Below are positions 8,912 through 49,517 of a stretch of DNA of 64,000 nucleotides, piece after piece (within the stretch, counting starts at the first letter, position 1; the number at the start of each line of letters is the position of its first letter). A program made the position numbers and the translations under genes. The stretch is from Candidatus Omnitrophota bacterium (GTDB lineage Bacteria; Omnitrophota; Gorgyraeia; JAFGGP01), in contig JAFGGP010000011.1 in the NCBI GenBank assembly GCA_016930485.1, positions 51,196-115,195 of the forward strand, read 5' to 3'. Below the pieces are notes generated by a model that saw only the letters and a list, made by a program, of their open reading frames with translations, searched no databases and had not been told where the DNA came from.

Positions 8912-8912
8912 T

Positions 8913-11290: not shown

Positions 11291-11323
11291 TTTTTTGTTT
11301 CTCACCTAACCCTAATTATAATT

Positions 11324-12892: not shown

Positions 12893-12922
12893 CAGATTGC
12901 ATCGAACCAAAAGGAGGTAGAG

Positions 12923-15787: not shown

Positions 15788-15978
15788 TGCGTTCGGCAAT
15801 CGATCCGACGTTTTTACCCCGTTAGACAAGGAGAACGCCGTTTTTCAAAACGAGATGAATAAAGTAGTGAATTAATGGGGGCACAAAAGAGAGCCCTGCC
15901 TTTAGGCCGGGTTCTACTGGGGTTTGCACATCACGATGCGTGAGAGGATTTCATAGTACACCCCCTGAGAGAGGTGTC

Positions 15979-16737
15979 ATGAAACGCTCCGTCAAAAACC
16001 AGGGAGGATTCCTTATGGATACCTACAGTACTGCGTCGATACTCTATTATTTTAACGTGCTTAAAAAGTACTGGCGCTTTATAGCCGTTGTCGTAATAAT
16101 AGCAACGGTCATTTCGGGGTTAAAAGGAATGCGCACCCCGAGATCCTATACAGCGGAGGTTGTGCTTCTTCTGCCGGCGTCAGAAGGGGGAAACTCTACC
16201 TCGTCTTCTATCGGCCGTTTTTTGGGAATCCCAAACCTTTCGGGCGGCGGCTCCTCAACGAGCCTGCTAGGAGCCATCATTAAAAGCCGCAAGATGGCCG
16301 AGGATATTGTTGAACACTTTAATTTGGCGGATAAGACAAAGCCCGGTGCCTGGGAGTCTGCGATACGGGGCACTAAAGGGAAAATCTTTCTTCCCCCGTC
16401 GCTCAATACCGTAACTCTCAGCATAAAAGCGAGCGACAGGGACCCTAAACGTGCGGCTCAAATAGCCAATTTTTGCGCGGAGAATTTAGATAATATAAAC
16501 GAAGAGCTTCAGATTACGACACAGAAGCCTATGGTTAAGATACTCGATGAGGCTACCCCGCCGCTGGCGCCCAATCCCCGGGGAGTCAAAAAACGCGCTT
16601 TGACCTCTGGTTTATTCGCTGGTCTGATGTGTATCCTTGGCGTCTTTTTCCTTGAGTATATAGCGTATCTAAAGAGGAAGAAAGAACCCAACGTTACATC
16701 AGAACTGCTCGAGGAGGAATTGAGCAATATTACATGA
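15979..16737 (+). CDS. Wzz/PCP-like chain-length determinant protein (no kinase domain)
   Basis: Wzz N-terminal motif (ILYYFNVLKKYWRFIAVVVIIATVISGL), a periplasmic region, and a C-terminal TM helix (LTSGLFAGLMCILGVFFLEYIAY). Start placed at the ATG after GAGAGAGG; the track ORF begins at 15940. Confidence 0.6.
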   Translation: MKRSVKNQGGFLMDTYSTASILYYFNVLKKYWRFIAVVVIIATVISGLKGMRTPRSYTAEVVLLLPASEGGNSTSSSIGRFLGIPNLSGGGSSTSLLGAIIKSRKMAEDIVEHFNLADKTKPGAWESAIRGTKGKIFLPPSLNTVTLSIKASDRDPKRAAQIANFCAENLDNINEELQITTQKPMVKILDEATPPLAPNPRGVKKRALTSGLFAGLMCILGVFFLEYIAYLKRKKEPNVTSELLEEELSNIT

Positions 16738-16954
16738 CACTAACCGGTCTAGCCGCTGTTGACCGGAGAGGGAAAAGGGAAGACGGGTGGCCGCCCGCGG
16801 GACCTCGACCATCGGGAATATCTCAGAGATACTATTATATTATGCTCAGGATGGAATTCGGGACTGTTTCGCACATCCCGTTTTTTAAGAGATACGAACA
16901 TTGCAATGTTTCTGATTCGTTATACTTCCAATGAGTGCATACAAGGAGGAAGAG

Positions 16955-17965
16955 ATGATTGATTGGCCGAAAAAGACTATTTTATTGACCGGCGGGACAG
17001 GCTCTTTTGGACGCGCCTTCACGGAGGCCATGCTCGAAAAATATAAACCGAAGACAGTAAGGATATTCAGCCGCGATGAACTCAAACAGTACGAAATGGC
17101 CAGACATTTTCATAATTCCGAGCGCCTCCGGTTTTTTATCGGTGACATCCGGGACAAGAACAGACTGGAGCGGGCTATGGATGGCGCAGATATCGTCATT
17201 CATGCCGCCGCATTAAAGCAAGTGCCCTTATGTGAATACAACCCTTTTGAGGCGGTTAAGACCAATATCTTCGGTGCCCAAAACATAATCGACGCCGCCA
17301 TCGATCATAACATTGAAAAGGTTCTTGCCATTAGCACCGACAAGGCCGTAAGCCCGGTAAATCTGTACGGCGCGACAAAAATGTGTATGGAGAAGTTATT
17401 TATCGCAGGAAATGCGTATGTCGGTGGTGCGAGACAGACCCGCATGAGTTGCGTCAGATATGGCAATGTTGTTGGATCGCGGGGGAGTGTTATACCGCTT
17501 CTCCAGCAGCAGCGCCCATCAGGGAAAATTACCCTCACCGATCAAAAGATGACCCGTTTCTGGATCACGCTGCAACAGGGGGTGGAGCTTGTTATCCGTT
17601 CTGTAGAGAAGATGCACGGCGGGGAAATTTTTGTGCCCAAGATACCCAGCATGAAACTCGTTGATCTGGCCCATGCCATTGCACCGGATTGTGAAATCCG
17701 CTATATCGGGGTGCGCCCCGGAGAAAAAATCCACGAGGCCTTAATTACACAGGATGAGGCCCGCCATACATTGGAGTTCGACGATTTCTTTGTGATACAA
17801 CCTGAATTTCCCCGGTGGGAAACGAATAATTGGGTCGGCGGCAGGCCCCTTGCCTCCGGATTTACCTATACAAGCGACACGAACGAAAAATGGCTCACCC
17901 CGACCGAGCTTCGGGAGATGGCAGAGGCATATGAAGACCATACCGTATGGACAGCAGCGGCTTGA
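16955..17965 (+). CDS. pseB: UDP-GlcNAc 4,6-dehydratase/5-epimerase (inverting), PseB
   Basis: KTILLTGGTGSFG...IGDIRD...IHAAALKQVPLCEYNP matches the PseB/FlaA1 (Polysacc_synt_2) family. Start chosen at the ATG 5 nt after the strong AAGGAGGA RBS. Confidence 0.8.
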   Translation: MIDWPKKTILLTGGTGSFGRAFTEAMLEKYKPKTVRIFSRDELKQYEMARHFHNSERLRFFIGDIRDKNRLERAMDGADIVIHAAALKQVPLCEYNPFEAVKTNIFGAQNIIDAAIDHNIEKVLAISTDKAVSPVNLYGATKMCMEKLFIAGNAYVGGARQTRMSCVRYGNVVGSRGSVIPLLQQQRPSGKITLTDQKMTRFWITLQQGVELVIRSVEKMHGGEIFVPKIPSMKLVDLAHAIAPDCEIRYIGVRPGEKIHEALITQDEARHTLEFDDFFVIQPEFPRWETNNWVGGRPLASGFTYTSDTNEKWLTPTELREMAEAYEDHTVWTAAA

Positions 17966-19130
17966 CAGTGCCGACATTAAGAGCGTGGTAACGGTTCTGA
18001 GGTCGGAATGGCTCACCCAGGGTCCGCGGGTCAAGGACTTTGAAAGAGCCCTGTGCCGGTATACGGGGGCACGCTACGCAGTTGTGGTCTCCAGCGGGAC
18101 AGCCGCATTGCATATAGCGTGTCTGGCCGCGGAGATAAGCAAGGGGGACGAGATCATTACCTCTCCGGTTACGTTTGCCGCTTCGGCAAACTGCGCCGTT
18201 TATTGCGGCGGTCGGCCGACATTTGCCGATGTTAGAGAAAACACAATTAATATCGATCCGGAAAAAATAGCGGCAAACATCACGAAAAAAACCAGGGTGA
18301 TCATTCCCGTTCACTTTGCCGGAAATCCCTGCGACCTCACCGAGATACACGCCATCGCCAGAAAGAACGGGCTTATTGTGATCGAGGATGCCTGTCATGC
18401 CCTGGGCGCCGAGTACAAGGCGGGACGCAGGTGGCTTAAGATAGGTTCCTGCAGGCATTCGGATATGGCGGTGTTCAGTTTTCATCCCGTTAAAACCATT
18501 ACCGCGGGCGAGGGCGGGGCCGTCCTGACCAACGATGCCACTTTGTACGAACGGCTGCTTCTTCTGCGCAATCACGGTATTACCCGTAATAGAAGTCACT
18601 GGGTAAGCGCCTCCGACAATCTCAAGGATATGTGTATAACGAGCAATATCTCTTCCGCCTTCTGGTATTACGAAATGCAACTCCTCGGATACAATTACCG
18701 GATTACCGATATCCAGTGCGCGTTGGGTATTTCACAGATGAAAAAAGTGGATGCGTTCGTAGAGAGTCGCCGGCAAAAGGCCGATGCGTACCAGAAAGAA
18801 CTGGGACACGTCAAAGGGCTTCGTCTTCCCTGTGAGTCGGAAGGCACAAGGTCTTCCTGGCACATTTATCCGGTGCGGGTCTCTGGAAGGGAAAAAAGGC
18901 AGCGGCTGTTTGAGTATCTGCTGAAAAACGGGATAGGGAGCCAGGTGCATTATATCCCCGTCCACCTACAACCATACTACCGCAGGGAGTTCGGCACAAA
19001 GAACGGGGATTGTCCCGTTGCCGAAGAGTATTTTAAACAGTGTCTGAGCATCCCACTCTATCCGGGATTGTCATGGACAGACCAGTCAAAGGTAATACGG
19101 AATATAAAGGGCTTTTTCAAGAATGACTAA
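17931..19130 (+). CDS. pseC: DegT-family aminotransferase, PseC-like (UDP-4-amino-4,6-dideoxy-AltNAc transaminase)
   Basis: MKTIPYGQQRLDSADIKSVVTVLRSEWLTQGPRVKDFE N-terminus typical of PseC, and a PLP-lysine region SFHPVKTITAGEGG. Overlaps the end of pseB by 35 nt. Confidence 0.7.
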   Translation: MKTIPYGQQRLDSADIKSVVTVLRSEWLTQGPRVKDFERALCRYTGARYAVVVSSGTAALHIACLAAEISKGDEIITSPVTFAASANCAVYCGGRPTFADVRENTINIDPEKIAANITKKTRVIIPVHFAGNPCDLTEIHAIARKNGLIVIEDACHALGAEYKAGRRWLKIGSCRHSDMAVFSFHPVKTITAGEGGAVLTNDATLYERLLLLRNHGITRNRSHWVSASDNLKDMCITSNISSAFWYYEMQLLGYNYRITDIQCALGISQMKKVDAFVESRRQKADAYQKELGHVKGLRLPCESEGTRSSWHIYPVRVSGREKRQRLFEYLLKNGIGSQVHYIPVHLQPYYRREFGTKNGDCPVAEEYFKQCLSIPLYPGLSWTDQSKVIRNIKGFFKND

Positions 19131-20016
19131 TCCTTTTGTCAAAAAACTGTGCCTAGGGACGGCTCAACTGGGCATGGATTACGGAATTGCCAATAAGACC
19201 GGAAAAGTTCCACGTGATCAGGCATTAAATATAGTGCAGTATGCACACGAGGCAGGCATAGATACTTTGGATACGGCATATGTGTATGGAGACAGTGAAG
19301 AGATTATCGGTCATTTTTTATCAGGGGCAAAAAGGGCGTTCAAGGTTGTTTCTAAATTGCCGCCCCTGGACGACAAAAGCACCTTAGAAGACATAGAAGA
19401 CGCCGTTAAGACTTCTCGAGACAGATTAAAAATTCAGGTGCTGTATGGGTATTTGATCCATAGGCCTCGCGATTTCTTGCAACATAAAGGGTTATGGAAT
19501 GCATTAGAGACTCTGAGAGAAAAAGGTATTATGAAAAAAATAGGTTTTTCAATCTGTACGACTGAAGAACTTGAAATGATTTTTAAAAACAACATAGCGA
19601 TAGATATTCTTCAACTTCCGTACAGCATCTTTGATCGTCGATTTGAGAAGTATTTTTCAGAATTGAAGGAGCGTAATATTGAAATTCATGCGAGATCCGC
19701 GTTTCTTCAAGGGTTAGTTTTTTTAACGCCCGGTGCCTTGCCTTCCAATCTTTCGAAGGCAAAAGATCCTATTGAGAAGTTACACAAGGCATCCAGAGCC
19801 CTTCATTTACCAATACATGCAGTGTGTATAAATTTTGTTTTGTTGCAGTCTTATATCGATAAAGTAGTAATAGGTGTTGATCACTTGGAGCATTTAAAGA
19901 AAAACGTAGAGGCCCTGAAGGCTATACACAAGGTTAAGAAAGCATATGGTAAATTAATGCCATTAGAAATAGACGACGAACAAATCCTCCTTCCGTATAA
20001 CTGGAATATAAAATGA
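19123..20016 (+). CDS. Aldo/keto reductase family oxidoreductase
   Basis: CLGTAQLGMDYG...GIDTLDTAYVYGDSEEIIG core of the AKR superfamily. Lies in the low-GC segment. Confidence 0.7.
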   Translation: MTNPFVKKLCLGTAQLGMDYGIANKTGKVPRDQALNIVQYAHEAGIDTLDTAYVYGDSEEIIGHFLSGAKRAFKVVSKLPPLDDKSTLEDIEDAVKTSRDRLKIQVLYGYLIHRPRDFLQHKGLWNALETLREKGIMKKIGFSICTTEELEMIFKNNIAIDILQLPYSIFDRRFEKYFSELKERNIEIHARSAFLQGLVFLTPGALPSNLSKAKDPIEKLHKASRALHLPIHAVCINFVLLQSYIDKVVIGVDHLEHLKKNVEALKAIHKVKKAYGKLMPLEIDDEQILLPYNWNIK

Positions 20017-22067
20017 AAACAGTTGCGATTATTCAGGCGAGAATGGGGTCTTCGAGATTGCCGAACAAGGTCCTTATGGAGATCGAAAAAAAGCCCATGC
20101 TGTGGCATATAGTACAACGGGTTTCTTCGGCAAAATTGCTGGACGATGTTGTTATCGCTACCTCGAGGAGCCAGAGAGACAGACCACTTGAAAAGTTTGC
20201 CAGAGAAAATAAGTTCAAGCTGTTTAAGGGGGCAGAGAATAACTGCTTAGATCGATATTACAAGGCTGCCAAGGCATCAAAGGCAGACGCGATTGTACGG
20301 ATAACCGGCGACTGTCCTTTGATCTGCCCCGAAGTCATTGACAAGGTATTATCGGAATATTCGAAAGGCAAGCATGACTATGTGGCAAACACGCTCTTTT
20401 ATACTTACCCAGATGGTTGCGATGTTGAGGTATTTTCATTCAAGGCCCTGGAGAAGGCCTGGAAGGAGTGCAAGGACAGGGTAGGCAAGGAACACGTGAC
20501 CCCTTATCTTAGAAATTCAAGCATGTTTAAGTTAAAAAATGTAGAGAGCGAAACTCCAGTTGATCCAAAGGACTATAAATGGTCGGTAGATAGGCTTGAA
20601 GATCTGAATCTCGTTAGAGAGGTGTATAAACATCTGTATACAAAACAGAGGGACTTTTCAATGAATGCAATTTTCGATCTTGTAAAAAAGCACCCCTATT
20701 TAAAAAAGATCAACTCGGAAACTATCGTGAACGAGGGTTATTATAAAAGCTTTTTGAAGGCCGAGAAAATAAGGCCAAAAAAAATAAGGATTGCACAATC
20801 CCTGGCATTAAAAAAAAGGGCTAGAAGATTAATACCTGGTTGTAGTCAGACATTCAGTAAGGCTCCCTCACAGTTCGTTCAGGGCATCGCTCCGGTATTT
20901 TTGGAAAAGGGCTCAGGCAGCCATGTGTGGGATGTAGATGGGAATGAATATATCGATTATTCAATGGCGCTGGGCCCGATTATTTTAGGATACAATTATC
21001 CGCTGGTTACTAGGGCGGTCAAGGTGATGTTAGAGAAAGGCGTTACTTTTACTCTGCCTCACCGTCTTGAAGGAGAGCTGGCCGAGATGCTCTGCGAGTT
21101 GATACCGTGCGCAGAGATGGTGCGGTACGGAAAAAACGGCTCTGATGTGACCTCTGCCGCGGTGCGGGTCGCGCGGGCATATACGTCTCGCGATAAAATC
21201 GCCTGCTGTGGTTATCACGGCTGGCAGGACTGGTATATTGCCACTACGACGAGAAATAAGGGAATCCCTCAGGCGGTCAAGGATCTGACGCTCACCTTTA
21301 ACTATAACGATATAGAGAGTCTAAAAAAACTGTTTACCGAAAACAAAAATCAGATTGCCTGTGTCATTATGGAGCCGGTCGGGGTTGTTGAGCCGAAGGA
21401 TAATTTTTTGGAGAAGGTAAAAGAGCTCACCCATAAAAACGGCGCACTCTTGATATTTGATGAGGTCGTTACAGGTTTCCGGTTTTCACTGGGTGGAGCT
21501 CAAACGCTTTTCGGCGTTGTTCCTGACCTTGCCTGTTTTGGCAAGGCGATGGGAAACGGTTTTCCGATATCAACTGTTGTAGGCAGAAGAAAAATCCTCA
21601 AATTATTTGAGGAGGTATTTTTCTCTTTTACCTTTGGAGGAGAGATTCTTTCCATCGCTGCCTCAATCGTGACGATTAAAGAGCTTAAGAAAAAGAATGT
21701 TATTCAATATTTATGGAAACAGGGCAGAAAACTTAAAGACGGATACAACGTCTTAGTTAAGGCCCACCAACTTGAACGATATACCGAGTGTACAGGCTTT
21801 TCGCCGAGGACTATCATTATGTTCAGAAATAGAGAGGGGGCGACAGATCTTTTACTCAAGAGCCTTTTTCAGCAGGAGTGCATAAAGCGAGGTATCTTAT
21901 TTACCGGAGGACAGAATATGTGTTTTAGTCACTCCGACAGTGATATCGAACGTACGTTACGGGTATATAATTCTGTATTAGAAATTGTTAAAAGAGCTAT
22001 TAAACAAGATAAAGTAAGAAAGCTTATCAAAGGTGAAATAGTTAAGCCAATATTTAGAAAAGCATAA
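20013..22067 (+). CDS. Bifunctional protein: N-terminal PseF/SpsF-like nonulosonate cytidylyltransferase fused to a class-III (GSA-aminomutase-like) PLP aminotransferase
   Basis: N-terminal domain: MKTVAIIQARMGSSRLPNKVL...ITGDCPL, the cytidylyltransferase (CTP_transf_3) pattern. C-terminal domain: VRYGKNGSDVTSAAVRVARAYT...FDEVVTGFRF...CFGKAMGNGFPIS, the class-III aminotransferase pattern. One continuous 684-aa ORF. Confidence 0.7.
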   Translation: MKTVAIIQARMGSSRLPNKVLMEIEKKPMLWHIVQRVSSAKLLDDVVIATSRSQRDRPLEKFARENKFKLFKGAENNCLDRYYKAAKASKADAIVRITGDCPLICPEVIDKVLSEYSKGKHDYVANTLFYTYPDGCDVEVFSFKALEKAWKECKDRVGKEHVTPYLRNSSMFKLKNVESETPVDPKDYKWSVDRLEDLNLVREVYKHLYTKQRDFSMNAIFDLVKKHPYLKKINSETIVNEGYYKSFLKAEKIRPKKIRIAQSLALKKRARRLIPGCSQTFSKAPSQFVQGIAPVFLEKGSGSHVWDVDGNEYIDYSMALGPIILGYNYPLVTRAVKVMLEKGVTFTLPHRLEGELAEMLCELIPCAEMVRYGKNGSDVTSAAVRVARAYTSRDKIACCGYHGWQDWYIATTTRNKGIPQAVKDLTLTFNYNDIESLKKLFTENKNQIACVIMEPVGVVEPKDNFLEKVKELTHKNGALLIFDEVVTGFRFSLGGAQTLFGVVPDLACFGKAMGNGFPISTVVGRRKILKLFEEVFFSFTFGGEILSIAASIVTIKELKKKNVIQYLWKQGRKLKDGYNVLVKAHQLERYTECTGFSPRTIIMFRNREGATDLLLKSLFQQECIKRGILFTGGQNMCFSHSDSDIERTLRVYNSVLEIVKRAIKQDKVRKLIKGEIVKPIFRKA

Positions 22068-22628
22068 ATGAACTTCTTGTCTGATGTAAAGAACCAGGAA
22101 AGCACCGCGCATATCAAGGGCGAAAGAATATACCTGCGCGAAATCAACGTTTCTGACGTGAATGAACGTTATCTCGGCTGGATGAATGATTCGGAGGTCA
22201 CGCGGCATTTGCTGTGTGATGCTGAAAAATGGACGTTAGGAAAACTTAAAAAGTATGTAAAAAAGATGAAAAAGGATCCCAACTCTATATTTTTTGGGAT
22301 ATTTCTTAATGCGAATGAAACACATATAGGGAATTTAAAAATCGGTTCGATAGACTACAGGAACAACTTTGCGGATATAGGCCTACTTATTGGGGAAAGA
22401 ACAATGTGGGGCCAAGGATATGCTTCCGAGGCGATAAGATTAGCGGTCGATTTTTCCTTTAATACACTAAATCTTCATAAGTTGACTGCTAGTGTGCTTT
22501 CAATCAATATAGGTTCTGTAAGGGTTTTTCAAAAGTGCGGCTTCTCTATCGAGGGCAAAAGAGAAAAACAGTATTTTTATGATGGGGATTATCAGGATAG
22601 TATTTTATTCGGAATTATCAAAAAATGA
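22068..22628 (+). CDS. GNAT N-acetyltransferase (candidate PseH)
   Basis: 186 aa. Acetyl-CoA binding motif QGYASEAIRLAVDFSF and a RimL/PseH-like size. Positioned between the cytidylyltransferase fusion and pseG. Confidence 0.55.
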   Translation: MNFLSDVKNQESTAHIKGERIYLREINVSDVNERYLGWMNDSEVTRHLLCDAEKWTLGKLKKYVKKMKKDPNSIFFGIFLNANETHIGNLKIGSIDYRNNFADIGLLIGERTMWGQGYASEAIRLAVDFSFNTLNLHKLTASVLSINIGSVRVFQKCGFSIEGKREKQYFYDGDYQDSILFGIIKK

Positions 22629-23671
22629 AAATTGCCATACTGACTGAAGGCGGCAAAAATATCGGTTTTGGTCATATCACGCGCTGTGTGGCCCTCCTAG
22701 AGGGGTTGAAAAAGGCCGCCGGCCGGAGAGTCGCGGGCATGTTCGTGATTAATAATGACAGGAGGGCCGTGCGCTTCCTCGAAAGTCAGGGGGTGAGGCT
22801 GACGGCATTCGACTGGATTGAAAAAAGAAAAAAGACGGCCGGCATCCTGAAAGGGGCGGACCTCGTTATCATAGATTCTTATTTTGCCCCCCCGTCATTC
22901 TATTCGTTTCTTTCGCATAAGACAAAAGACACACACCCCTTTGTGGTGGCAATCGATGATTATAAACGCATTGAGTACGACGCTGATCTGGTTATCAATC
23001 CCTCGATATATGGCGATGCCCTCTCGTATGCGCCGGGCAGGGAACACAGAGCCGGTCGCCGCCCTGAATATTTACTGGGAAGGAGTTATATTATCGTACG
23101 CAGGGAGTTCTGGAATGTCCCGAGAAAAAAAATCAATAAAAAGATCCGGAACGTGCTGGTTTCTTTCGGTGGGAAGGACTACGATCCGTTTACCGAGGCT
23201 GTTTTTACATTTTTGGAGACGGAGTTTCCTCATCTTGCCTATGACGTTGTAGCCCCGTCCCGGCCGGCCGGTCTTTCCCGGTCTCGATTCAGGTTTTATT
23301 CCAATGTCTCCGCCGCGAAGATGCGTTCTCTCATGTTGAAGGCGGACCTGTGTATTTCTGCCGGCGGGCAGACCCTGCACGAGCTGGCGCGGTGCGGCGT
23401 TCCGGCCGCGTCGATTTGCTTTGCCGATAATCAGGTGAAGAATCTTAAGGGGTGGGAGAAGATCGGTTTTGCAAAGTATGTTGGCTGGTATGACGACCGA
23501 AATGTTTTTGCCAGATTAGGGAGGGCAGTCTGCGCGCTCTCGCCTTATAAGGAGAGGCTGCTCCGGAGCAGGATAGGAAGACGGATCGCAGCCAAAGGGG
23601 TAGAGAGGATAAGCAGGGTTTTACTGACCAAGACAGCACTCAAACAAAAGGAGACGGCACATGAGTCGTGA
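22625..23671 (+). CDS. pseG: UDP-2,4-diacetamido-2,4,6-trideoxy-beta-L-altropyranose hydrolase, PseG (GT28-like fold)
   Basis: MKIAILTEGGKNIGFGHITRCVALLEGL N-terminus is the PseG hallmark. C-terminal half (ISAGGQTLHELARCGVPAAS) is MurG/GT28-like. Confidence 0.7.
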   Translation: MKIAILTEGGKNIGFGHITRCVALLEGLKKAAGRRVAGMFVINNDRRAVRFLESQGVRLTAFDWIEKRKKTAGILKGADLVIIDSYFAPPSFYSFLSHKTKDTHPFVVAIDDYKRIEYDADLVINPSIYGDALSYAPGREHRAGRRPEYLLGRSYIIVRREFWNVPRKKINKKIRNVLVSFGGKDYDPFTEAVFTFLETEFPHLAYDVVAPSRPAGLSRSRFRFYSNVSAAKMRSLMLKADLCISAGGQTLHELARCGVPAASICFADNQVKNLKGWEKIGFAKYVGWYDDRNVFARLGRAVCALSPYKERLLRSRIGRRIAAKGVERISRVLLTKTALKQKETAHES

Positions 23672-24704
23672 TGGGCATGTTACTTTCAACAAGTGCTTTA
23701 TCATTGCCGAGGCAGGCAGCAATCACAATGGTTCGCTCGACCAGGCAAAACGGCTGGTAGACGTTGCAAAGGATGCGGGTGCCGATGCCGTGAAGTTTCA
23801 GCTCTTTCGCGCCAAGACCCTTTACCCCAATAAACACATAAAAGTCAAGTATTTGAAGGACATGGGGATTCGCGAGGGGTTATTCGAGATTATCAGGAAA
23901 TTCGAAATGCCCTATACCTGGGTGAAGGAACTGTATAGTTACACAAAAAAGAACGATATTATGTTCATGACCACCCCTTTTGATGCCAAGGCGGTGGAGG
24001 TTCTCAATCCTTACGTGGATATATTTAAAATTGCTTCGTACGAATCGTTGTTTTTGGACCTGATCTGTGCGGTCAAACAAACCAAAAAACCTCTTTTTAT
24101 ATCTACGGGCGGATGCACCGAGGAAGAGGTTGATTTGCTGATGAAGGGGGCCCTGTACGATTATCTTGATAAGACGACACTCCTGCACTGTATCGCGAAG
24201 TATCCGGCTCCGCTTGATCAGCTGCAGCTGCAGGTGATACCGCACTTCTCCAGAAAGTATGGTGTAACCGTCGGATATTCCGACCATTCGGAGGACCCGA
24301 TCATTGCGCCGGTGTGCGCGGTTGCGCTGGGCGCAAAGGTAATCGAGAAACACTTTACGCTGAGTAAGCAATTGCCCGGCCCGGACCACGCCTTTGCGGT
24401 CGAACCGGATGAATTACAGGCGATGGTGAAGGCCGTGCGCATGACAGAGAAGACGGTTGCGGGAAGCGGTAAAAGAACCCTGCAGCCCTGCGAGAAAGAA
24501 CTCTATTACTATAAACGCTGCCTTTACAGCAGGAGAGATTTATCGAAAGGACACAGGATCAGAAAGAGCGATGTGACGGTACTGAGAAATGTAGGGCTTA
24601 AGTGCGATTATTTTAATCCTATAGAGATCGACGACCTTATCGGCAGGACATTAAAAGGCGATAAAAGGGCCAATGATATTATAACAAAGGAAGATGTGAC
24701 ATGA
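23661..24704 (+). CDS. pseI: Pseudaminic acid synthase PseI (NeuB family, C-terminal SAF domain)
   Basis: FIIAEAGSNHNGSLDQAKRLVDVAKDAGADAVKFQ NeuB TIM-barrel motif and a C-terminal SAF/antifreeze-like domain. Confidence 0.8.
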   Translation: MSRDGHVTFNKCFIIAEAGSNHNGSLDQAKRLVDVAKDAGADAVKFQLFRAKTLYPNKHIKVKYLKDMGIREGLFEIIRKFEMPYTWVKELYSYTKKNDIMFMTTPFDAKAVEVLNPYVDIFKIASYESLFLDLICAVKQTKKPLFISTGGCTEEEVDLLMKGALYDYLDKTTLLHCIAKYPAPLDQLQLQVIPHFSRKYGVTVGYSDHSEDPIIAPVCAVALGAKVIEKHFTLSKQLPGPDHAFAVEPDELQAMVKAVRMTEKTVAGSGKRTLQPCEKELYYYKRCLYSRRDLSKGHRIRKSDVTVLRNVGLKCDYFNPIEIDDLIGRTLKGDKRANDIITKEDVT

Positions 24705-25564
24705 GCACCGAATGCACAGGAAAACTCATCTTAGAAAGAGCCGACAGAAGGCTTATAGACTGCAAAAAGTGCGGGTATATGCATATATTTCCTATGTACA
24801 CGGAAGAGGAATTGGAACATTTTTATGAGAATGTGTACTCCGAGAGTACGCCGAGTTACATCTGGTATGAAAAATTTCACAATATCCAGCGGTGGAAGCC
24901 GCAGGGTACGGTTCTTGATATCGGATGCTGGGAAGGCGCCCAGCTTGAGATTTTTAAGGAACACGGCTGGAAGTGTACCGGTATAGAACTAAATAAAAAA
25001 GCAGCGGCCACGGCAACTACAAGGGGGCTGGAGGTTCACCAGCTTTCTATTCAAGAATTTTTTAAGAAGTTTCGCGGGGCCAGAAGATGGGACGTTATTA
25101 ATGTTGCCTATATTTTGGAACACATTCCAAAACCGGCTGATTTTCTGAAAAAAATAGGCGCCTTTTTGAAAAAGGGCGGTTTTATCATCGTAGAGGTCCC
25201 TAACGAATTCAGTCCTTTCCAGATAGCCTATCTGAAGGAACACAGCATGTCCCCATATTGGATAAAGTTACCCGACCACGTTAACTACTTTAATAAAAGA
25301 GGCCTCGAGAACCTCATGAAGTCGACAGGCTGGAAAAAGATTCACGGCCACACCTCCTTTCCGATGGAGATGTTTCTCTTGATGGGGGATAACTATCTGA
25401 AGGACAACAAACTCGGAAGGCGCAGCTTTCGCAAAGTTGTCGAGATGGAGAGGATCCTGAGGCTTTACAAGACGGGACTGGTCTCGCGGATGTATTCTGC
25501 GCTCTATCACTGCGGGATAGGCAGAAGCCTTGTCATCTACGCGCAAAAGAAAAAAATGAGATGA
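24701..25564 (+). CDS. Class-I SAM-dependent methyltransferase with an N-terminal C4 zinc-ribbon
   Basis: N-terminal ...CKKCGYMH plus an upstream Cys. SAM-binding motif I (VLDIGCWEGAQL) and motif II (WDVINVAYILEHI). Confidence 0.65.
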   Translation: MSTECTGKLILERADRRLIDCKKCGYMHIFPMYTEEELEHFYENVYSESTPSYIWYEKFHNIQRWKPQGTVLDIGCWEGAQLEIFKEHGWKCTGIELNKKAAATATTRGLEVHQLSIQEFFKKFRGARRWDVINVAYILEHIPKPADFLKKIGAFLKKGGFIIVEVPNEFSPFQIAYLKEHSMSPYWIKLPDHVNYFNKRGLENLMKSTGWKKIHGHTSFPMEMFLLMGDNYLKDNKLGRRSFRKVVEMERILRLYKTGLVSRMYSALYHCGIGRSLVIYAQKKKMR

Positions 25565-26316
25565 GAATAGCCGTATTTGCCGATGTACACGGCAACATGT
25601 ATGCCTTTGAGAAGATTCTGGAGGCCCTGAAAAAAGAGAGGGCCGATCTTCATATCTTCTGCGGCGATATCTGCGGGTACTATTACCAGCAGGACGAGGT
25701 CATTCAGGCGCTTCGCCAGATGCGTAATCTGGTAAGTGTCGTAGGGAATCACGATGAGATATTTCTCAGGATGCTGGAGGATACACGTCTTGAGGAAGAG
25801 TATACAAAGCAGTACGGCAGGTCATGCTCACTCTTTAAAGAAAGCGCCGCGTTAGAAAGTGTAACATTTTTAAAGGAGTTACCGAAAAAGTATATCATTG
25901 AAGAATATGCCGTAGCCGTTTTTCACGGCAGCCCCTGGGATTACTGTAATGAGTATGTGTATCCCGATGGCGCTCTAGACAGGTTTCGTGAGCTGCCTTA
26001 TCGGTTTGTTCTGCTTGGCCACACGCATTATCCGATGGACAGAATTGCCGGCGGTGTAAGGATTATTAACCCCGGCTCATGCGGCCAGCCGAGGGATATG
26101 CATATACCCAGTTACGCGGTCCTGGATATTGACAGCGGAGAAGTTATATCCAGGCGCGTTCCGTATAATACCGAGTATTTGAAAAATGACGTCAGAAGAT
26201 ACAAAGAAGACAATCTCTATTTAGAGGAGATTTTGACAAGAGGGGAAGGGTGTTATGAGCAGGCGAACTGTACTAGTCACCGGAATCGGCGGGGATATCG
26301 GCCAGAGCGTACTTAA
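25561..26316 (+). CDS. Calcineurin-like metallophosphoesterase (YfcE/MJ0936-like)
   Basis: MRIAVFADVHGN, GDICG, GNHDE and GHTHYP metal-ligand motifs. Confidence 0.6.
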   Translation: MRIAVFADVHGNMYAFEKILEALKKERADLHIFCGDICGYYYQQDEVIQALRQMRNLVSVVGNHDEIFLRMLEDTRLEEEYTKQYGRSCSLFKESAALESVTFLKELPKKYIIEEYAVAVFHGSPWDYCNEYVYPDGALDRFRELPYRFVLLGHTHYPMDRIAGGVRIINPGSCGQPRDMHIPSYAVLDIDSGEVISRRVPYNTEYLKNDVRRYKEDNLYLEEILTRGEGCYEQANCTSHRNRRGYRPERT

Positions 26317-27241
26317 GTGTCTCAGAGAGATTCCCTATGATTTCCTCCTGGCAGGCTGTGATATCGATGCCTTTGCGGGAGGTAGGACGCTGGTCGACGC
26401 CTTTTACCATGCCCCGAAGGCCTCCGAAGCGGAAGGATATCTCGCGTTTATCAAGACTATACTGGCAAAGGAAGAGGTAAAGTATATATTTCCCGTGACC
26501 GAGATCGAGATAGATTTTTTCGATAAGCACAGGGCGTATTTTGAAAAGGACGTTACCGTTTTTATAAACACAGGCGATATCAATGAGATTTTTTTCGACA
26601 AGTATGAGACGGCGAAGTTCCTCGGCAAACACAACATTGCCTATCCGGCAACGTATTTGCTCGGGGATTACAATGATGAGTTAAGCCTACCCGTTATTGT
26701 GAAATCACGCAGGGGCTGTGGCGGCAGAGGAATGCTGATAGTGTGCGACCGTGACGAGCTTATGTTTCTAAAGAGCAAGATGAAAGATGGCATCGTACAG
26801 GAATTGGTCGGGGCCGAGGACGATGAGTATACGGTGAGCATCTTTTCCGGGGGAGGAAAAACGTATTCTATCGCCTTTCGGAGGACCCTTGGCTATGACG
26901 GACTCAGCAAGGTTGCCCGGCTGACGACAGATAACAGGATAACAGCGCTCGTTGACAGTATCGTGGAGGCGACGTCGCTCGAAGGGGTCCTGAACGTTCA
27001 GTGCAGAAAAAGGAATGCTGAGTACGTGCCCTTCGAAATCAATCCCCGGCTCTCAAGCACCGTCTACACCCGCCACTATTTTGGTTTTCAGGATGTGAAG
27101 TGGTGGATGGATACTGCCGAAGGAAAAGAAGTTGTCTATGTGCCGAAGTTCAAAGATGGCGTCGCGGTGAGGACTATCAGTGAGGTCTTTTTTGATCTTG
27201 AGTCCGCAGACAGCCCGGACAATATACGCACATTGCGATAA
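26255..27241 (+). CDS. ATP-grasp family ligase
   Basis: Pre-ATP-grasp Rossmann N-domain, then VIVKSRRGCGGRGMLIV and E..Y/N.. ATP-grasp motifs. About 330 aa, like PylC/RimK-type amide ligases. Confidence 0.55.
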   Translation: MSRRTVLVTGIGGDIGQSVLKCLREIPYDFLLAGCDIDAFAGGRTLVDAFYHAPKASEAEGYLAFIKTILAKEEVKYIFPVTEIEIDFFDKHRAYFEKDVTVFINTGDINEIFFDKYETAKFLGKHNIAYPATYLLGDYNDELSLPVIVKSRRGCGGRGMLIVCDRDELMFLKSKMKDGIVQELVGAEDDEYTVSIFSGGGKTYSIAFRRTLGYDGLSKVARLTTDNRITALVDSIVEATSLEGVLNVQCRKRNAEYVPFEINPRLSSTVYTRHYFGFQDVKWWMDTAEGKEVVYVPKFKDGVAVRTISEVFFDLESADSPDNIRTLR

Positions 27242-27250
27242 AAGGAACAA

Positions 27251-27955
27251 ATGAGCCGCCCGGATAAGAAAAGATATATTATTGCCGCCAGCAAATCCTG
27301 GAATATAGAGGCAGCCAGATCCTTTATTGCCGATAGCCCCGACTTACAGATAAAGCTTATAACAGACAAAAAGGCGCTTACCTACGGGGAGATAAAGAAC
27401 TTCAATCCCCGCTACGTCTTTTTCCTGCATTGGTCGTGGCTGATACCTCAGGCGATTCACCGGAACTACGACTGCGTCGTTTTTCATATGACTGATTTAC
27501 CTTTTGGCAGGGGCGGTAGCCCTCTCCAGAATTTGATAGAGAGAGGGATATATAAAACGAAGATTGCGGCCATAAAGGCGGTCCGGGAGCTGGACGCGGG
27601 AGATATCCTGCTTAAGAAGAGCCTGACTCTGGAGGGGTCTGCTGACGAGATATTCAGGCGCGCGACAAAAATTATCTTTACATCCATGATTCCCCGAATC
27701 ATCAAAGACGAGCCGGTTCCTGTTCCTCAGAAGGGGAAGGTGGTTCGTTTTAAAAGGCGTCTTCCCGAGCAGGGCACTATAGCCCGGTTGAGCAGTCTAA
27801 CAAAGGTCTATGATTACATAAGGATGCTGGACGCAGAGGGGTATCCGCCCGCCTTTATGGAGGTGTCCGGATTAAGGTTGGAATTTTTTGATGCACAGAA
27901 GAAAAAGGACTATATTACGGCAAAGGTCAGGCTGAGGATAAAAGATGAAACATAA
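27251..27955 (+). CDS. Formyltransferase-family protein (Fmt/PurN fold)
   Basis: HMTDLPFGRGGSPLQ matches the H-x-S/T-x-LP-x-x-RG-x-x-P-x-Q formyltransferase catalytic loop. Confidence 0.6.
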   Translation: MSRPDKKRYIIAASKSWNIEAARSFIADSPDLQIKLITDKKALTYGEIKNFNPRYVFFLHWSWLIPQAIHRNYDCVVFHMTDLPFGRGGSPLQNLIERGIYKTKIAAIKAVRELDAGDILLKKSLTLEGSADEIFRRATKIIFTSMIPRIIKDEPVPVPQKGKVVRFKRRLPEQGTIARLSSLTKVYDYIRMLDAEGYPPAFMEVSGLRLEFFDAQKKKDYITAKVRLRIKDET

Positions 27956-28625
27956 CATTTTGATTGTAGCCGCTCATCCGGACGATGAGATTCTCGGGTG
28001 CGGGGGTACGGTTGCGCGCTTGATTAAAGAAGGGCATGCAGCGTATACGTTACTGTTGGGCGAGGGGGTAACCTCGCGAGATGAGGAGCGCGACCCGAAA
28101 AAACGGGGAAAAGAGATTAACAGCCTGAGAAACCAGGCCCAGCAGGCTAACGCTGCCCTCGGGGTAAAAGAAGTTTTTATACATAGCTTTCCGGATAACA
28201 GATTTGATACGGTGCCGCTTTTGGATATTGTCAAGGTTATAGAAAAGACAAAAGAGAAAGTAAAACCTGCCCTTGTCTTTACTCATTATGCGAATGACCT
28301 CAATATCGATCACCGCATTACCTGTGCCGCAGTTCTCACCGCTACCAGACCCGTGTTGGATGAGACAGTAAAAGAAATCTACTCGTTTGAGGTACCTTCT
28401 TCTACAGAGTGGAACTATCCCTTGAGTTTTTCCCCGAATGTATATTTTGATATCTCACAGACGATAGATGTGAAGTTGCAGGCAATAAAGCAGTACGTTT
28501 CAGAGATCAAAGAGCCACCCCACCCCAGGTCTCAGGAAGGCGTAGAGCTCAATGCAAGGATGTGGGGGATGAAGGTGGGACTTGGGTATGCCGAGGCCTT
28601 TACATGCGTGAGGCGCCTGGCGTAG
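27945..28625 (+). CDS. PIG-L/LmbE-family N-deacetylase
   Basis: ILIVAAHPDDEILGCGGTVARL zinc-binding signature of LmbE/PIG-L deacetylases. Confidence 0.75.
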   Translation: MKHNILIVAAHPDDEILGCGGTVARLIKEGHAAYTLLLGEGVTSRDEERDPKKRGKEINSLRNQAQQANAALGVKEVFIHSFPDNRFDTVPLLDIVKVIEKTKEKVKPALVFTHYANDLNIDHRITCAAVLTATRPVLDETVKEIYSFEVPSSTEWNYPLSFSPNVYFDISQTIDVKLQAIKQYVSEIKEPPHPRSQEGVELNARMWGMKVGLGYAEAFTCVRRLA

Positions 28626-28657
28626 GCGTGACGGAGCGGTCAAAAAAGAGGTATTAG

Positions 28658-29758
28658 ATGTCTTTAGAGTGCATCGTTTGCAGTTCGACACAGTGCACGT
28701 TATTGATTAAACAAGGCGGGTACGACATTTTTAGGTGCCGCCGCTGCCGCCTGATTTTCGCCCATCCCCTCCCGGATGCCGGCCAGCTGGGCGCGTTTTA
28801 TCAGAATTTTGGCCATAATCGCGAAGAGGCAGACTGTCCTGATGAACAGAGACTCATTGTTGAAGGGGCGATGAGAGAAAAAATTCGTCTTGCCAGGGAA
28901 ATCGCCGTCTCGCCGATAAAGACCTTTCTCGATATAGGTGCGGGCTGCGGCTATTATCTGCACGGGGCGAAAAAGGCGGGGTTGGACGTGACAGGCGTGG
29001 AACTGGACGCTAGTGCCGTTATGTTTGCCCGGGAGCATCTGGGGCTCGAAATAAAAGAGGGAGGTTTTCTGGAGGCAGCTCTCGAGGACAATTATTTTGA
29101 CTTTGTCCACCTTCGTAACTCTATCGAGCATTTTACGGACCCAGGGGAGTGCCTTTTGAAGATAAACCATATCATGAAAAAGGGCGGGGTATTAATACTG
29201 GAGACACCGAATTCCCAAAGCCCCGAGCACCTGGTGCGCCGGTTATTTCTGGATGCCGTAAAAACCCTGAGACGGAATATGCCCGGCCGGGCCGCGTGGT
29301 GGTATTGGAAGACGGCACTTATGCGGCCCTGGGCATATGTTGATCCCCCGCGACATCTCTATGGCTTCAATAAGCACAACATCGATCTTCTTCTGGCGAC
29401 TTATGGATTCAAAAGTTACGACATTATGGCCAAGCCGCTGGGCGACCCTGTTTATCATCCTGTTTCCCCCGGCGCCCAGAGGCAACGCGATGCTGAGATG
29501 CGCGCTGCCGAGGCGCGTCTTTTTTCAAGCTCCAGGCTGCGGTATTGTCTCTATGTCTTTGGATGGAAACCTGTTGCTTTTATCTTACAAAAGATAATCG
29601 CACGGGCCGGAATGGGGAATAATCTGGTTGTGTATGCTGTAAAAGAGAAGACGGTTGCACGCAAGTGTGCGGCGCCGACCGAAGAGCTTATTACGGGACG
29701 CCGCCAGGATATGTCTACATCAGAAACAAAGAGCGCACTCATACAATGTACAGCCTAA
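28658..29758 (+). CDS. Class-I SAM-dependent methyltransferase with an N-terminal C4 zinc-ribbon (paralog of 24701..25564)
   Basis: CIVCSS...CRRCRL zinc-ribbon. SAM motif FLDIGAGCGYYL and motif II FDFVHLRNSIEHF. Same architecture as the gene at 24701. Confidence 0.65.
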   Translation: MSLECIVCSSTQCTLLIKQGGYDIFRCRRCRLIFAHPLPDAGQLGAFYQNFGHNREEADCPDEQRLIVEGAMREKIRLAREIAVSPIKTFLDIGAGCGYYLHGAKKAGLDVTGVELDASAVMFAREHLGLEIKEGGFLEAALEDNYFDFVHLRNSIEHFTDPGECLLKINHIMKKGGVLILETPNSQSPEHLVRRLFLDAVKTLRRNMPGRAAWWYWKTALMRPWAYVDPPRHLYGFNKHNIDLLLATYGFKSYDIMAKPLGDPVYHPVSPGAQRQRDAEMRAAEARLFSSSRLRYCLYVFGWKPVAFILQKIIARAGMGNNLVVYAVKEKTVARKCAAPTEELITGRRQDMSTSETKSALIQCTA

Positions 29759-31155
29759 TTATACCCACATCGGCGCCTCAGAAAAGACATTCTCGGCGAT
29801 ATAGTATGCTGTGGAAGAAAATGCGGTCTTTTTTGCGCTATACGATCAAACCCTATGTGTATATCCCCATTACCTTTACCAAGCGGGTTCTTTTGGGCAA
29901 AGACCCCTATTGGCGGCAGTACTTCTGGAGTCGGTGGGGGTATGTGCCGAGAACGGTGGCGCGGGAACTTCAAAAGGCGCAACCCTTTTTTATAGCAGCG
30001 GATAGTTTCGGAGAGGTCAACGAGCTTTTTTCTTTCTGTAAGAGGCTTAAAGAAAGTTTTCCAGAGACACCGATTCTGGTCTCGACGAATACCGAGAACG
30101 GCTTTTCTCTGGCAAAAAGGATAGAGGCTGTTGATTTTGTTATCGATGCGCCGTGGGATCTTCCCGGTCCGACAAGGAGAGTACTCAGGGCCTGTTCTCC
30201 CAGGGCCTTGATTGTGATAGAACAGATCAGATTTCCGGTGCTTGTGCGTGAGGCAAAGGAGCTGAACATACCGACACTTCTCTGCAGTGGTTTTTTATCG
30301 GAAGACTGGGAAAATGTTCTTTCAGCCTTCAGGGCTGTAACACTAAAGGCCTATACATATTTGGATGCTATTGGCGCTAAAGGCATATCTGAGGTCGATA
30401 CCTTTTTAAGGATAGGAGTTGATTCAAAAAAGATATCGGTAACCGGGGATTTAAAATGCGATCCCGGTCATATCAGGATTTCGTCGGACGAGCGTGATGA
30501 TCTGCTGAAATCGGTAGCCTGTCATGATAGCCGTCCCGTATTTCTGGCAGCAAGCATACACAAAGAGGAGGCCTCCGCGATTATAGAGGGGTACCGGTTG
30601 GCAAAAAGGCGCGTACCGTTGCTTCGGTTATTGTGCGTCCCGCGCTATCCGGGGGAATTGGATTTTTTTGAAAGACTACTAGCAAAAAACGGCCTGGCTT
30701 TTGTGAAAAAATCCCTCATCACGAAAGACACTCTATCCAACGACCACTCGATTATATTAGTGGATACTATGGGTGAGCTGGCAAAATTATACGCCGTTGC
30801 CTCCCTTGCCTTTATCGGCGGCAGTTTTATGAAGATAGAAGGTCCCGGAAGAGGGGGGCACAATATAATGGAACCGGTTATCCAGAGCTGCCCCTTTTTA
30901 TTCGGACCTTATTTGTATCATCGCAGCGACATTCTTCGTCGTCTTGCGTCTGCCTGCCCGCATATAGTGGTGAGGACAGAAGAGGATCTTGCCTCAGGTA
31001 TTCAGAAGTTGCTGGAGGATCAGCATCACCTTACGTTACTCAGGGGCGTTATGAGTGAGATTGTGAACGAGAATGCATCCACGGTAGAAGTAAACATTGA
31101 TTTCGTAAAGAGATATACGGCTGTGTCAGGGGCACCCGTTACAGCTGTAACCTAG
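29746..31155 (+). CDS. WaaA/KdtA-family (GT30) ulosonic-acid transferase homolog
   Basis: Two conserved blocks align with E. coli WaaA: VLVSTNTENGFSLAKR and ILVDTMGELAKLYAVASLAFIGGSFMKIEGPGRGGHNIMEP...FGPYLYHRSDI. The start is ambiguous (29746 or 29806). Confidence 0.7.
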   Translation: MYSLIIPTSAPQKRHSRRYSMLWKKMRSFLRYTIKPYVYIPITFTKRVLLGKDPYWRQYFWSRWGYVPRTVARELQKAQPFFIAADSFGEVNELFSFCKRLKESFPETPILVSTNTENGFSLAKRIEAVDFVIDAPWDLPGPTRRVLRACSPRALIVIEQIRFPVLVREAKELNIPTLLCSGFLSEDWENVLSAFRAVTLKAYTYLDAIGAKGISEVDTFLRIGVDSKKISVTGDLKCDPGHIRISSDERDDLLKSVACHDSRPVFLAASIHKEEASAIIEGYRLAKRRVPLLRLLCVPRYPGELDFFERLLAKNGLAFVKKSLITKDTLSNDHSIILVDTMGELAKLYAVASLAFIGGSFMKIEGPGRGGHNIMEPVIQSCPFLFGPYLYHRSDILRRLASACPHIVVRTEEDLASGIQKLLEDQHHLTLLRGVMSEIVNENASTVEVNIDFVKRYTAVSGAPVTAVT

Positions 31156-49513: not shown

Positions 49514-49517
49514 TATC

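Follow-up and report, generated by a model that had tools for sequence, protein, structure and literature searches.

In a 64-kb stretch of DNA from an Omnitrophota bacterium (the window, by which we mean the whole stretch analyzed), the gene at positions 20013..22067 codes for a 684-amino-acid enzyme in which an SpsF-type cytidylyltransferase is joined to a class-III, pyridoxal phosphate (PLP)-dependent aminotransferase. This two-domain enzyme is authentic and widely conserved. Judged by its gene content, the surrounding region is a pseudaminic acid (Pse)-type nonulosonic acid pathway within a capsule or exopolysaccharide (EPS) locus. Comparison with related loci suggests that the class-III domain is paired with an oxidoreductase, in this case an aldo-keto reductase (AKR), in a module whose most plausible role is to give the sugar a third amino group. 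The system would be a variant of a known logic, namely nonulosonate tailoring by a dehydrogenase/transaminase pair, here together with an SpsF-type CMP-synthetase. Nonulosonic acids, such as Pse and legionaminic acid (Leg), decorate flagella, capsules, lipopolysaccharides, and S-layers, with consequences for motility, immune recognition, and phage adsorption.

Authenticity of the fusion gene

The coding sequence is one unbroken frame of 684 codons with a lone terminal stop, and the two other frames of the same interval contain 38 and 49 stops, 6–9 of which span the domain junction. Pfam analysis of the protein identified CTP_transf_3 (aa 4-174, E 1e-31) and Aminotran_3 (PF00202; aa 294-584, E 9e-51). 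Homology extended beyond these borders: SpsF-type similarity reached aa 243 (aa 1-243 aligned with PDB 6oew, "cytidylyltransferase") and class-III similarity to NF004856 covered aa 259-683, which leaves an interdomain linker no longer than some 15 residues. An AlphaFold2 model generated with 43 homologues as input was confident along its whole length (pLDDT 91.8, pTM 0.91), and a structure search with this model found no solved PDB chain spanning both domains.

An identical protein is deposited at NCBI from a Candidatus Omnitrophota metagenome-assembled genome. In a collection of 5.8 billion proteins, the best 120 matches were all full-length fusions (663-700 aa, 58-73% identity) from independent assemblies of Omnitrophota, Nitrospiraceae, Desulfobacterales, and Thermodesulfobacteriota. 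In an alignment of 131 fused homologues, the PLP-binding lysine K511 and D483 were 100% conserved in the aminotransferase domain. In the cytidylyltransferase domain the conserved fractions were 0.95 for R10, 0.98 for R15 and K19, and 1.00 for D100 of the GDCP motif, and D193 and D197 were kept in at least 98%. A frameshift or false fusion is ruled out by the single frame, the stop-filled other frames, and the more than 120 full-length homologues; an assembly artefact, by the identical NCBI protein and the fusions from independent assemblies; and degenerate domains, by the conserved catalytic residues in both of them. These results bore out the original prediction, made from the sequence of the window, that a cytidylyltransferase-class-III fusion preceded by an AKR gene lies inside a Pse cluster. 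The stop codon of the AKR gene overlaps the start of the fusion gene (ATGA). As the original prediction stated, class-III aminotransferases have no place among the six enzymes of the canonical Pse pathway.

The N-terminal domain is a putative CMP-nonulosonate synthetase

The N-terminal domain contains the motifs ARMGSSRLPNK (R10, R15, and K19), TGDCP (D100), and VDRLED (D193 and D197), and in this way keeps the nucleotide-binding ARxGSxRLPxK and the acidic GDxP and VDxxxD signatures of SpsF-type enzymes. It matched, over its full length, a hidden Markov model (HMM) built from 73 standalone SpsF-type proteins. SpsF of Bacillus subtilis (COG1861) shares the nucleotide-binding and acidic motifs with this domain, and the alignment to 6oew runs from end to end; in B. 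subtilis the cluster is Leg-type, whereas here the cluster is Pse-type and a class-III aminotransferase is fused. When the SpsF HMM was run over the 526 open reading frames of the window, the fusion was the sole match (E 5e-105; next E > 2), and Pfam scans of the remaining window genes revealed no other nucleotidyltransferase. Hence the domain is the sole cytidylyltransferase inside the pseB/pseC/pseG/pseI-type operon of the window, as had been claimed originally. Its identity with canonical PseF or KdsB was excluded by scores far below the cutoffs: 27 bits against 205.7 for the PseF equivalog TIGR03584, with only aa 4-51 aligning, and 51.8 bits against 155.2 for KdsB. PseF belongs to the same CTP_transf_3 superfamily and has the same predicted reaction and the same place in the pathway, but its sugar-binding C-terminal half cannot be aligned with the domain.

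In order to compare gene neighborhoods, the genes around 80 genomic loci were clustered and the cluster representatives annotated; 40 of these loci were Pse-type. The cytidylyltransferase beside the aminotransferase was SpsF-type in 33 of the 40, canonical PseF in five (TIGR03584, 186-214 bits), and both in one; in two of the PseF loci the enzyme occupied the identical position (PseF-Gfo-aminotransferase). Since SpsF-type enzymes and PseF alternate across these loci, they appear to be interchangeable and to do the same job. In the Pseudosulfitobacter RefSeq annotation, pseB, pseC, pseG, and pseI are called around the fused gene, and no pseF is. In B. subtilis spsF mutants, Leg accumulates but does not reach the surface of the spore (PMC7439481), and an SpsF-AKR fusion in a Vibrio/Moritella Pse cluster was proposed by its authors as a replacement for NeuA (PMC7371886). 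We found in the literature no in vitro CMP-sugar product for any SpsF-type enzyme. Taken together, the comparison of loci and the published work make it quite probable that the N-terminal domain is a CMP-nonulosonate synthetase. Many Pse-type clusters seem to lack pseF, and recognizing that an SpsF-type domain fills this role would improve pathway calls in metagenomes.

The C-terminal domain is a class-III aminotransferase that differs from HemL

The nearest named family of the C-terminal domain is NF004856 (PRK06209, "GSA aminomutase"), with 451.7 bits, below the cutoff of 486. In sequence searches of the PDB it matched glutamate-1-semialdehyde (GSA) aminomutases (E 3.5e-67), FumI (E 3.7e-46), and the GenB-type C-6' aminotransferase 7lm0 (E 4e-40). 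Foldseek comparison of the domain model gave TM scores of 0.87-0.89 with GSA aminomutases (30-33% identity), 0.91 with FumI, and 0.88 with PctV, the whole range over these enzymes and omega-transaminases being 0.83-0.91. FumI, one of the nearest structural relatives, has a CH3-CH(NH2)- terminus as its site of action; the compound transaminated by PctV is a cyclic keto-acid. HemL (PDB 2gsa and 3k28) is the closest solved fold and has the same PLP-lysine and Asp, K511 and D483 aligning with the "GK" and "DEV" motifs of GSA aminomutase.

A genuine housekeeping HemL, located by chance in a sugar operon, could be read from these matches and from the JGI and NCBIfam family name, glutamate-1-semialdehyde 2,1-aminomutase, but other data effectively refuted it. 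The domain scored 280.8 bits with the HemL equivalog TIGR00713, whose cutoff is 527.3. In the alignment to the GSA aminomutase of B. anthracis (3k28), QTFSKAP replaces NSPVRAF, the segment that in GSA aminomutase carries S29 and R32, the serine and arginine holding the substrate; Q279, T280, S282, and K283 are invariant in the 131 fused homologues of this aminotransferase family. Further invariant residues are K374 and R626. In addition, nine residues are missing after YHG, in the region of the active-site lid loop, and four at the FEGLF (E406) segment. HemL acts in heme synthesis, but here the domain lies in a sugar operon: the aminotransferase gene adjoins a NeuB gene in 72 of the 80 loci, and no heme genes were found near the fusion gene in the annotation of the window. 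On this sequence evidence, that is, the failed HemL cutoff, the altered motif and lid, and the NeuB neighborhood without heme genes, the database name "glutamate-1-semialdehyde aminomutase" is a misannotation by similarity. If so, correcting it would remove a widespread error that could inflate heme-pathway gene predictions.

These differences also bear on the reaction. The original prediction had left a choice between an extra amino-transfer and a mutase step. A true GSA-type mutase reaction is disfavored, because neither the substrate motif nor the lid loop of GSA aminomutase is preserved; the amino-transfer half of the claim gained support from the oxidoreductase partner found in the comparison of 40 loci (see below). 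In a related scheme, the PLP domain would act as a deaminase or mutase on a free sugar amine (e.g., N7 before acetylation) and the AKR or Gfo/Idh/MocA enzyme would reduce the resulting ketone, leading to exchange of an amine for a hydroxyl, conversion of 7-amino/8-hydroxy to 7-hydroxy/8-amino, or epimerization, and in the end to an isomeric or deaminated nonulosonate. Such relocation or removal of an amine would agree with GSA aminomutases being the nearest solved relatives, with AKRs being typically reductases, and with the presence of epimerases and racemases in class III, and a mutase with a single oxidoreductase would be redox-neutral. Nevertheless, we regard it as quite unlikely: the substrate-binding motif is not preserved, nor is the lid loop, by which GSA aminomutase holds back the diamino intermediate, removal of an amine just installed by PseC would be wasteful, and GNAT/PseH and PseG, which need a 4-N-acetylated sugar, are kept in most loci.

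Paralogues with about 41% identity, also named "glutamate-1-semialdehyde aminomutase," occur on many Rhizobium, Sinorhizobium, and Agrobacterium plasmids outside Pse clusters (e.g., locus L082, at 11959-13404, on pNGR234b of Sinorhizobium fredii NGR234). Since these rhizobial members stand outside Pse clusters, NF004856 probably lumps at least two functions. The rkp-3 cluster of S. fredii NGR234, in which RkpP or RkpO had been suspected to be the aminotransferase, was dropped as a characterized example: RkpN turned out to be homologous to PseF, and RkpO to be PseG (PMC7591256), and the 41% identical NGR234 homologue, which is not part of a Pse cluster, is uninformative.

An oxidoreductase accompanies the aminotransferase in Pse-type loci

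The usual gene order in the 40 Pse-type loci was PseB-PseC-[oxidoreductase]-SpsF-aminotransferase-PseG (often fused to GNAT)-NeuB. An AKR alone was present in 22 of them and a Gfo/Idh/MocA protein alone in 15; no locus had both, and the three without an adjacent partner included two at contig edges and one with an AKR more than 6 kb away. The AKR of the window holds the slot that is taken by Gfo/Idh/MocA in the 15 other loci, and its catalytic tetrad (D50/Y55/K78/H113) is conserved in at least 95% of 24 orthologues. In four acidobacterial genomes (loci L005, L006, L007, and L011, at about 8900-12043) and in the metagenomic protein P0131, Gfo/Idh/MocA, SpsF, and aminotransferase form a single polypeptide of 1026-1051 aa (1028-1051 aa in the acidobacteria), and the minimal acidobacterial pathway consists of five genes: PseB, PseC, Gfo-SpsF-aminotransferase, PseG-GNAT, and NeuB. 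On a Halorussus plasmid, Gfo, the SpsF-like protein, and the aminotransferase are coded by three neighboring genes in the same order. Since non-homologous oxidoreductases swap at a fixed slot beside the aminotransferase, these patterns suggest that the two enzymes act as a dehydrogenase/transaminase pair converting CH-OH to CH-NH2. The PDB relatives found for the AKR and Gfo partners were too distant for substrate assignment. The comparison defines a conserved oxidoreductase and class-III aminotransferase module, which databases label as "glutamate-1-semialdehyde aminomutase."

Known pairs of this kind are WbpB/WbpE, KdnB/KdnA (Kdo8N), NeoQ/NeoB, and GenQ/GenB. KdnB/KdnA of Shewanella and the other three share the same logic, in which a sugar carbonyl is made and then aminated by an adjacent PLP enzyme. 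NeoQ/NeoB and GenQ/GenB combine 6'-oxidation with a GSA aminomutase-like class-III aminotransferase in aminoglycosides, and GenB-type enzymes are detectable relatives of the C-terminal domain. WbpE is a DegT-family enzyme, whereas the aminotransferase here is class III. The partner here is an AKR, a Gfo/Idh/MocA protein, or a short-chain dehydrogenase/reductase (SDR), and the predicted substrate is a nine-carbon 9-deoxy nonulosonate, with a secondary alcohol and a methyl ketone in place of a terminal aldehyde. The passage of PMC5125639 that cites Gattis 2013 describes Kdo8N, an amino-ulosonic acid, as made by an oxidase and a transaminase.

At least two N-modifying genes (for formyltransferase, FemAB, an extra GNAT, hexapeptide transferase, ATP-grasp, or PseA/HisH/HisF) were found in 26 of the 40 loci, which is weakly compatible with an extra amine to decorate. 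A FemAB-family gene (TIGR04421, 282 bits) directly follows NeuB in the proteobacterial loci L043, L055 (14643-15731), L065, L071, and L077, suggesting aminoacyl-tRNA-dependent aminoacylation of a free sugar amine.

The pair could instead supply a side chain. The AKR and the aminotransferase would then make a small amino- or hydroxy-acid, of the gamma-aminobutyric acid (GABA), succinic semialdehyde, or 4-hydroxybutyrate type or a beta-amino-acid unit, to be amide-linked to N5 or N7 by ATP-grasp after PIG-L action, and SpsF would be the CMP-Pse synthetase. Pse and Leg commonly occur as N-acyl variants, transaminases of the GABA type and beta-transaminases are among the class-III enzymes, and genes for ATP-grasp, PIG-L, and methyltransferase lie just downstream in the window and in the related locus L001. 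Against this stand the presence of ATP-grasp in few of the 40 loci, the oxidoreductase/aminotransferase pair being universal; the minimal acidobacterial loci, which lack a ligase able to use such a unit; and the repeated fusion of aminotransferase and oxidoreductase to the cytidylyltransferase, which argues for a shared sugar substrate. We therefore consider side-chain supply improbable and prefer extra amination of the nonulosonate.

Proposed pathway for amination of the nonulosonate

According to family membership, PseB, PseC, the GNAT protein, and the PseG-like and NeuB-like enzymes would convert UDP-GlcNAc into a 5,7-diacylamido-3,5,7,9-tetradeoxy-nonulosonate. The SpsF-type domain would stand in for the missing PseF and form the CMP-sugar, a step well supported by the comparison of loci. 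The AKR, acting as a dehydrogenase, would oxidize a secondary hydroxyl freed only by the NeuB condensation, most likely the C8-OH beside the C9 methyl, giving a methyl ketone, or alternatively the C4-OH. The class-III domain would then transaminate the ketone, and a triamino, 8-amino-8-deoxy Pse-type sugar would result as the free acid or the CMP ester. Finally, the new amine and amines exposed by PIG-L would be decorated by the formyltransferase-like, ATP-grasp, and methyltransferase enzymes, and the GT30-like transferase would attach the finished sugar. Extra amination of the nonulosonate, as a whole, is a tentative proposal that could well be right but falls somewhat short of an even chance.

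The proposed site follows from the chemistry of the sugar. The sole hydroxyls of a Pse-type sugar are those at C4 and C8. Both would be available only after NeuB, because in the UDP-hexose the oxygen of C8 is part of the ring and C4 is the aldehyde carbon. In shape, a methyl ketone is what class-III amine transaminases classically act on. C8 would be favored over C4, with less confidence than amination itself.

Loci without PseB, PseC, and PseG formed a second type, represented by about 36-40 of the 80 loci and found in Bacteroidota, Ignavibacteriota, Chloroflexota, and a Methylomagnum plasmid (L025-L079; e.g., L048, 7101-14306, and L085, 7247-13692). Their gene order was Epimerase_2-like, SpsF-like, split transketolase (N and C halves), aminotransferase, SDR, HAD-IIIA phosphatase, NeuB, and fatty-acid hydroxylase. 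The aminotransferase belongs to a sister clade of that of the window, the adjoining oxidoreductase is an SDR, and NeuB is short and lacks the SAF domain. This type of locus looks like a pathway to an amino-ulosonic acid that is activated with CMP and may be a lipid head group. In Methylomagnum, the second-type locus is followed by genes for LplT and OlsB/OlsA-like acyltransferases.

Action of the aminotransferase after condensation fits both types of locus, because it is tied to NeuB and a cytidylyltransferase even where PseB and PseC are absent. Amination before condensation would lead to the same triamino nonulosonate, with the pair acting on the open-chain hexose (C5-OH of 2,4-diacetamido-2,4,6-trideoxy-L-altrose) or on another sugar or sugar phosphate upstream of NeuB, and the aminotransferase would be functionally uncoupled from the CMP step. 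In the second-type loci, the aminotransferase gene is joined by genes for a split transketolase, an SDR, and a HAD phosphatase, which suggests that it works on such sugar phosphates, and the reaction is chemically feasible, the free sugar exposing its C5 hydroxyl in the open-chain form only. On the other hand, where the aminotransferase is fused, as it repeatedly is, its partner is the final pathway enzyme instead of PseG or NeuB, and NeuB enzymes are usually choosy about their hexose substrate; we judge amination before NeuB to be unlikely.

Several points weigh against extra amination of the nonulosonate as proposed here. AKRs are usually reductases, and the pair could run backwards or reduce another carbonyl. 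Only one N-acyltransferase is present in 10 of the 40 loci, where the proposed new amine would be left free, which is possible but unusual. The position (C8 or C4) and the timing (free or CMP-sugar) are tentative, being assigned by chemical reasoning, and the second-type loci, with their transketolase, SDR, and HAD enzymes, may use the aminotransferase before NeuB. For no member of the aminotransferase clade did we find a biochemical or structural datum linking it to a substrate. In favor of the proposal, there is a chemical precedent: a sugar of the predicted type, 5,7-diacylamido-8-amino-3,5,7,8,9-pentadeoxy-manno-nonulosonic acid, is present in the O-antigen of Tenacibaculum (Flexibacter) maritimum. 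It is Pse-like (manno) and at C8 has a third amino group, to which a hydroxy-acid is bound as an amide (PMC3210612). The text of the paper on the T. maritimum O-antigen cluster mentions no NeuB, cytidylyltransferase, or class-III enzyme.

In its widest form, the proposal is that this module, present in at least 597 species of many bacterial and archaeal phyla, turns CMP-Pse-type acids into 8-amino (5,7,8-triamino) nonulosonic acids, and that the sister clade of Bacteroidota and Ignavibacteriota leads to another amino-ulosonic acid. We consider this generalization doubtful at present. If true, it would provide a genetic basis for the T. maritimum sugar, explaining an orphan natural sugar, and would bring to light a large, hidden class of sialic acid-like surface sugars, zwitterionic or tri-N-acylated. 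Extra amination by the module, if confirmed, would also widen nonulosonate chemistry and offer enzymes for chemoenzymatic synthesis of amino-modified sialic acid analogues.

Distribution of fused and split forms

The species count came from a scan of one genome per species, in which relatives were found either fused or as adjacent split genes. They occur in Acidobacteriota, Chloroflexota, Alpha-, Beta-, and Gammaproteobacteria, Paenibacillus, Bacteroidota, Planctomycetota, and DPANN archaea, and also on haloarchaeal and roseobacter plasmids. Cultured carriers include Pseudosulfitobacter pseudonitzschiae SMR1 (plasmid pSMR1-1), Janthinobacterium sp. CG3, Paenibacillus thalictri, and Legionella pneumophila serogroup 6. 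Split adjacent genes were as frequent as fusions. In a neighbor-joining tree of aminotransferase domains, four or more distinct clades contained fused forms, and split forms were scattered among them; fusion or fission has therefore been repeated. Among the best 150 representatives of 19,161 relatives, SpsF-type domains were found in the combinations PseB-SpsF, AKR-SpsF, SpsF-AKR, SpsF-GNAT, SpsF-aminotransferase, Gfo-SpsF-aminotransferase, SpsF-Wzx (flippase), and SpsF-SpsF.

By the Rosetta-stone argument, fusion places the aminotransferase in one pathway with the cytidylyltransferase. Since split forms are equally common, fusion or fission has been repeated, and the partners of SpsF are varied, fusion mainly reflects operon neighborhood; it would ensure 1:1 expression, and it does not in itself argue for obligatory channeling. 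The suggestion in the original prediction that amino transfer is channeled with CMP activation was for these reasons not sustained.

Databases and one Legionella gene table (PMC3694923) already contained the architecture without comment, and no function had been assigned to it. That table lists the same gene set beside CapD/PseB, DegT, PseG, and GNAT, but there each gene stands by itself, with acetamidino genes (HisH/HisF) in between. A search of the literature for a characterized member of the family returned gene-table mentions only, and papers on Leptospira and on Clostridium Pse contained nothing pertinent.

Organization of the locus

The genes from PseB to NeuB and the tailoring genes form a translationally coupled block in a long co-directional polysaccharide locus (Table 1); the TAA of the fusion gene abuts the ATG of the GNAT gene. 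PseB and PseC exceeded their equivalog cutoffs, and the GNAT, PseG-like, and NeuB/PseI-like proteins are family-level matches only. The PseC reading frame as listed begins at a TTG overlapping pseB, and its real start is probably further downstream.

Table 1. Features of the 64-kb window discussed in the text.
Feature	Positions	Strand	Evidence or remark
UDP-sugar dehydrogenases and epimerases			Upstream part of the polysaccharide locus
Wzi	11324-12892		Upstream part of the polysaccharide locus
Wza-like	12923-15787		Upstream part of the polysaccharide locus
Wzz-like	15940-16737		Upstream part of the polysaccharide locus
PseB, UDP-GlcNAc 4,6-dehydratase (inverting), first Pse-type step	16931..17965	+	TIGR03589 499.6 bits, cutoff 407.75; Polysacc_synt_2 E 1.5e-101
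PseC, DegT-family aminotransferase	17850..19130	+	TIGR03588 497.1 bits, cutoff 423.5
AKR	19123..20016	+	Aldo_ket_red E 1e-35
Fusion, 684 aa, SpsF-type cytidylyltransferase and class-III PLP aminotransferase	20013..22067	+
N-terminal SpsF-type CTP_transf_3 domain, aa 1-247	20013..20753	+	6oew E 5e-39; SpsF HMM 345 bits
C-terminal class-III (GSA aminomutase-like) PLP domain, aa 259-684	20787..22064	+	NF004856 451.7 bits
Codon of D483	21459-21461
Codon of K511	21543-21545
GNAT N-acetyltransferase, weakly PseH-like	22068..22628	+	Acetyltransf_3 E 2e-24; PseH TIGR03585 47.2 bits, cutoff 93.1
PseG-like UDP-sugar hydrolase	22625..23671	+	TIGR03590 135.6 bits, cutoff 153.55
NeuB-family nonulosonate synthase (PseI-like), SAF domain	23661..24704	+	NeuB E 9.5e-75; PseI 262.5 and NeuB_NnaB 288.1 bits, both below cutoff
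Methyltransferase	24701-25564	+
Metallophosphoesterase	25561-26316	+
ATP-grasp ligase	26255-27241	+
Formyltransferase-like	27251-27955	+
PIG-L de-N-acetylase (PIG-L/BshB-like)	27945-28625	+
Methyltransferase	28658-29758	+
GT30 Kdo-transferase-like glycosyltransferase	29665..31155	+	Glycos_transf_N E 1e-27; NF004388 209 bits, cutoff 438
Flippase			After the GT30 Kdo-transferase-like gene

The coupled genes at 24701..29758 probably act as a tailoring set on the (CMP-)nonulosonate; methyltransferase, ATP-grasp, phosphatase, and PIG-L genes also trail the fusion gene in locus L001. The overlapping formyltransferase-like/PIG-L gene pair recurs in eight related loci. In the formyltransferase-like protein, Pfam recognized only a C-terminal Formyl_trans_C_2 domain, and its matches to ArnA and formyltransferases were weak. 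A deacetylase and formyltransferase pair, to which the pair of the window corresponds, has been proposed in Ca. Kuenenia for free-amine and N-formyl CMP-nonulosonates (bioRxiv 10.64898/2026.04.20.719630).

The GT30 Kdo-transferase-like protein is a candidate CMP-nonulosonate transferase, and so is a 631-aa protein (32769-34664) with a weak "surface carbohydrate biosynthesis"/BFO_1060-like C-terminus. Further genes of the polysaccharide locus code for a radical SAM/SPASM protein (34669-35727) and for a 723-aa fusion of a GT4/GT1 glycosyltransferase with radical SAM/SPASM (58515-60686), both unusual partners for sugar-polymer synthesis. A second amino-sugar module (47336-51604) contains Gfo/Idh/MocA, DegT, an SDR epimerase/dehydratase, and another DegT (WbpB/WbpE-like). 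Upstream of the locus, two neighboring genes (773-3477) code for GGDEF diguanylate cyclases, one of them with a GAF domain, which may exert cyclic di-GMP control of capsule or EPS production.

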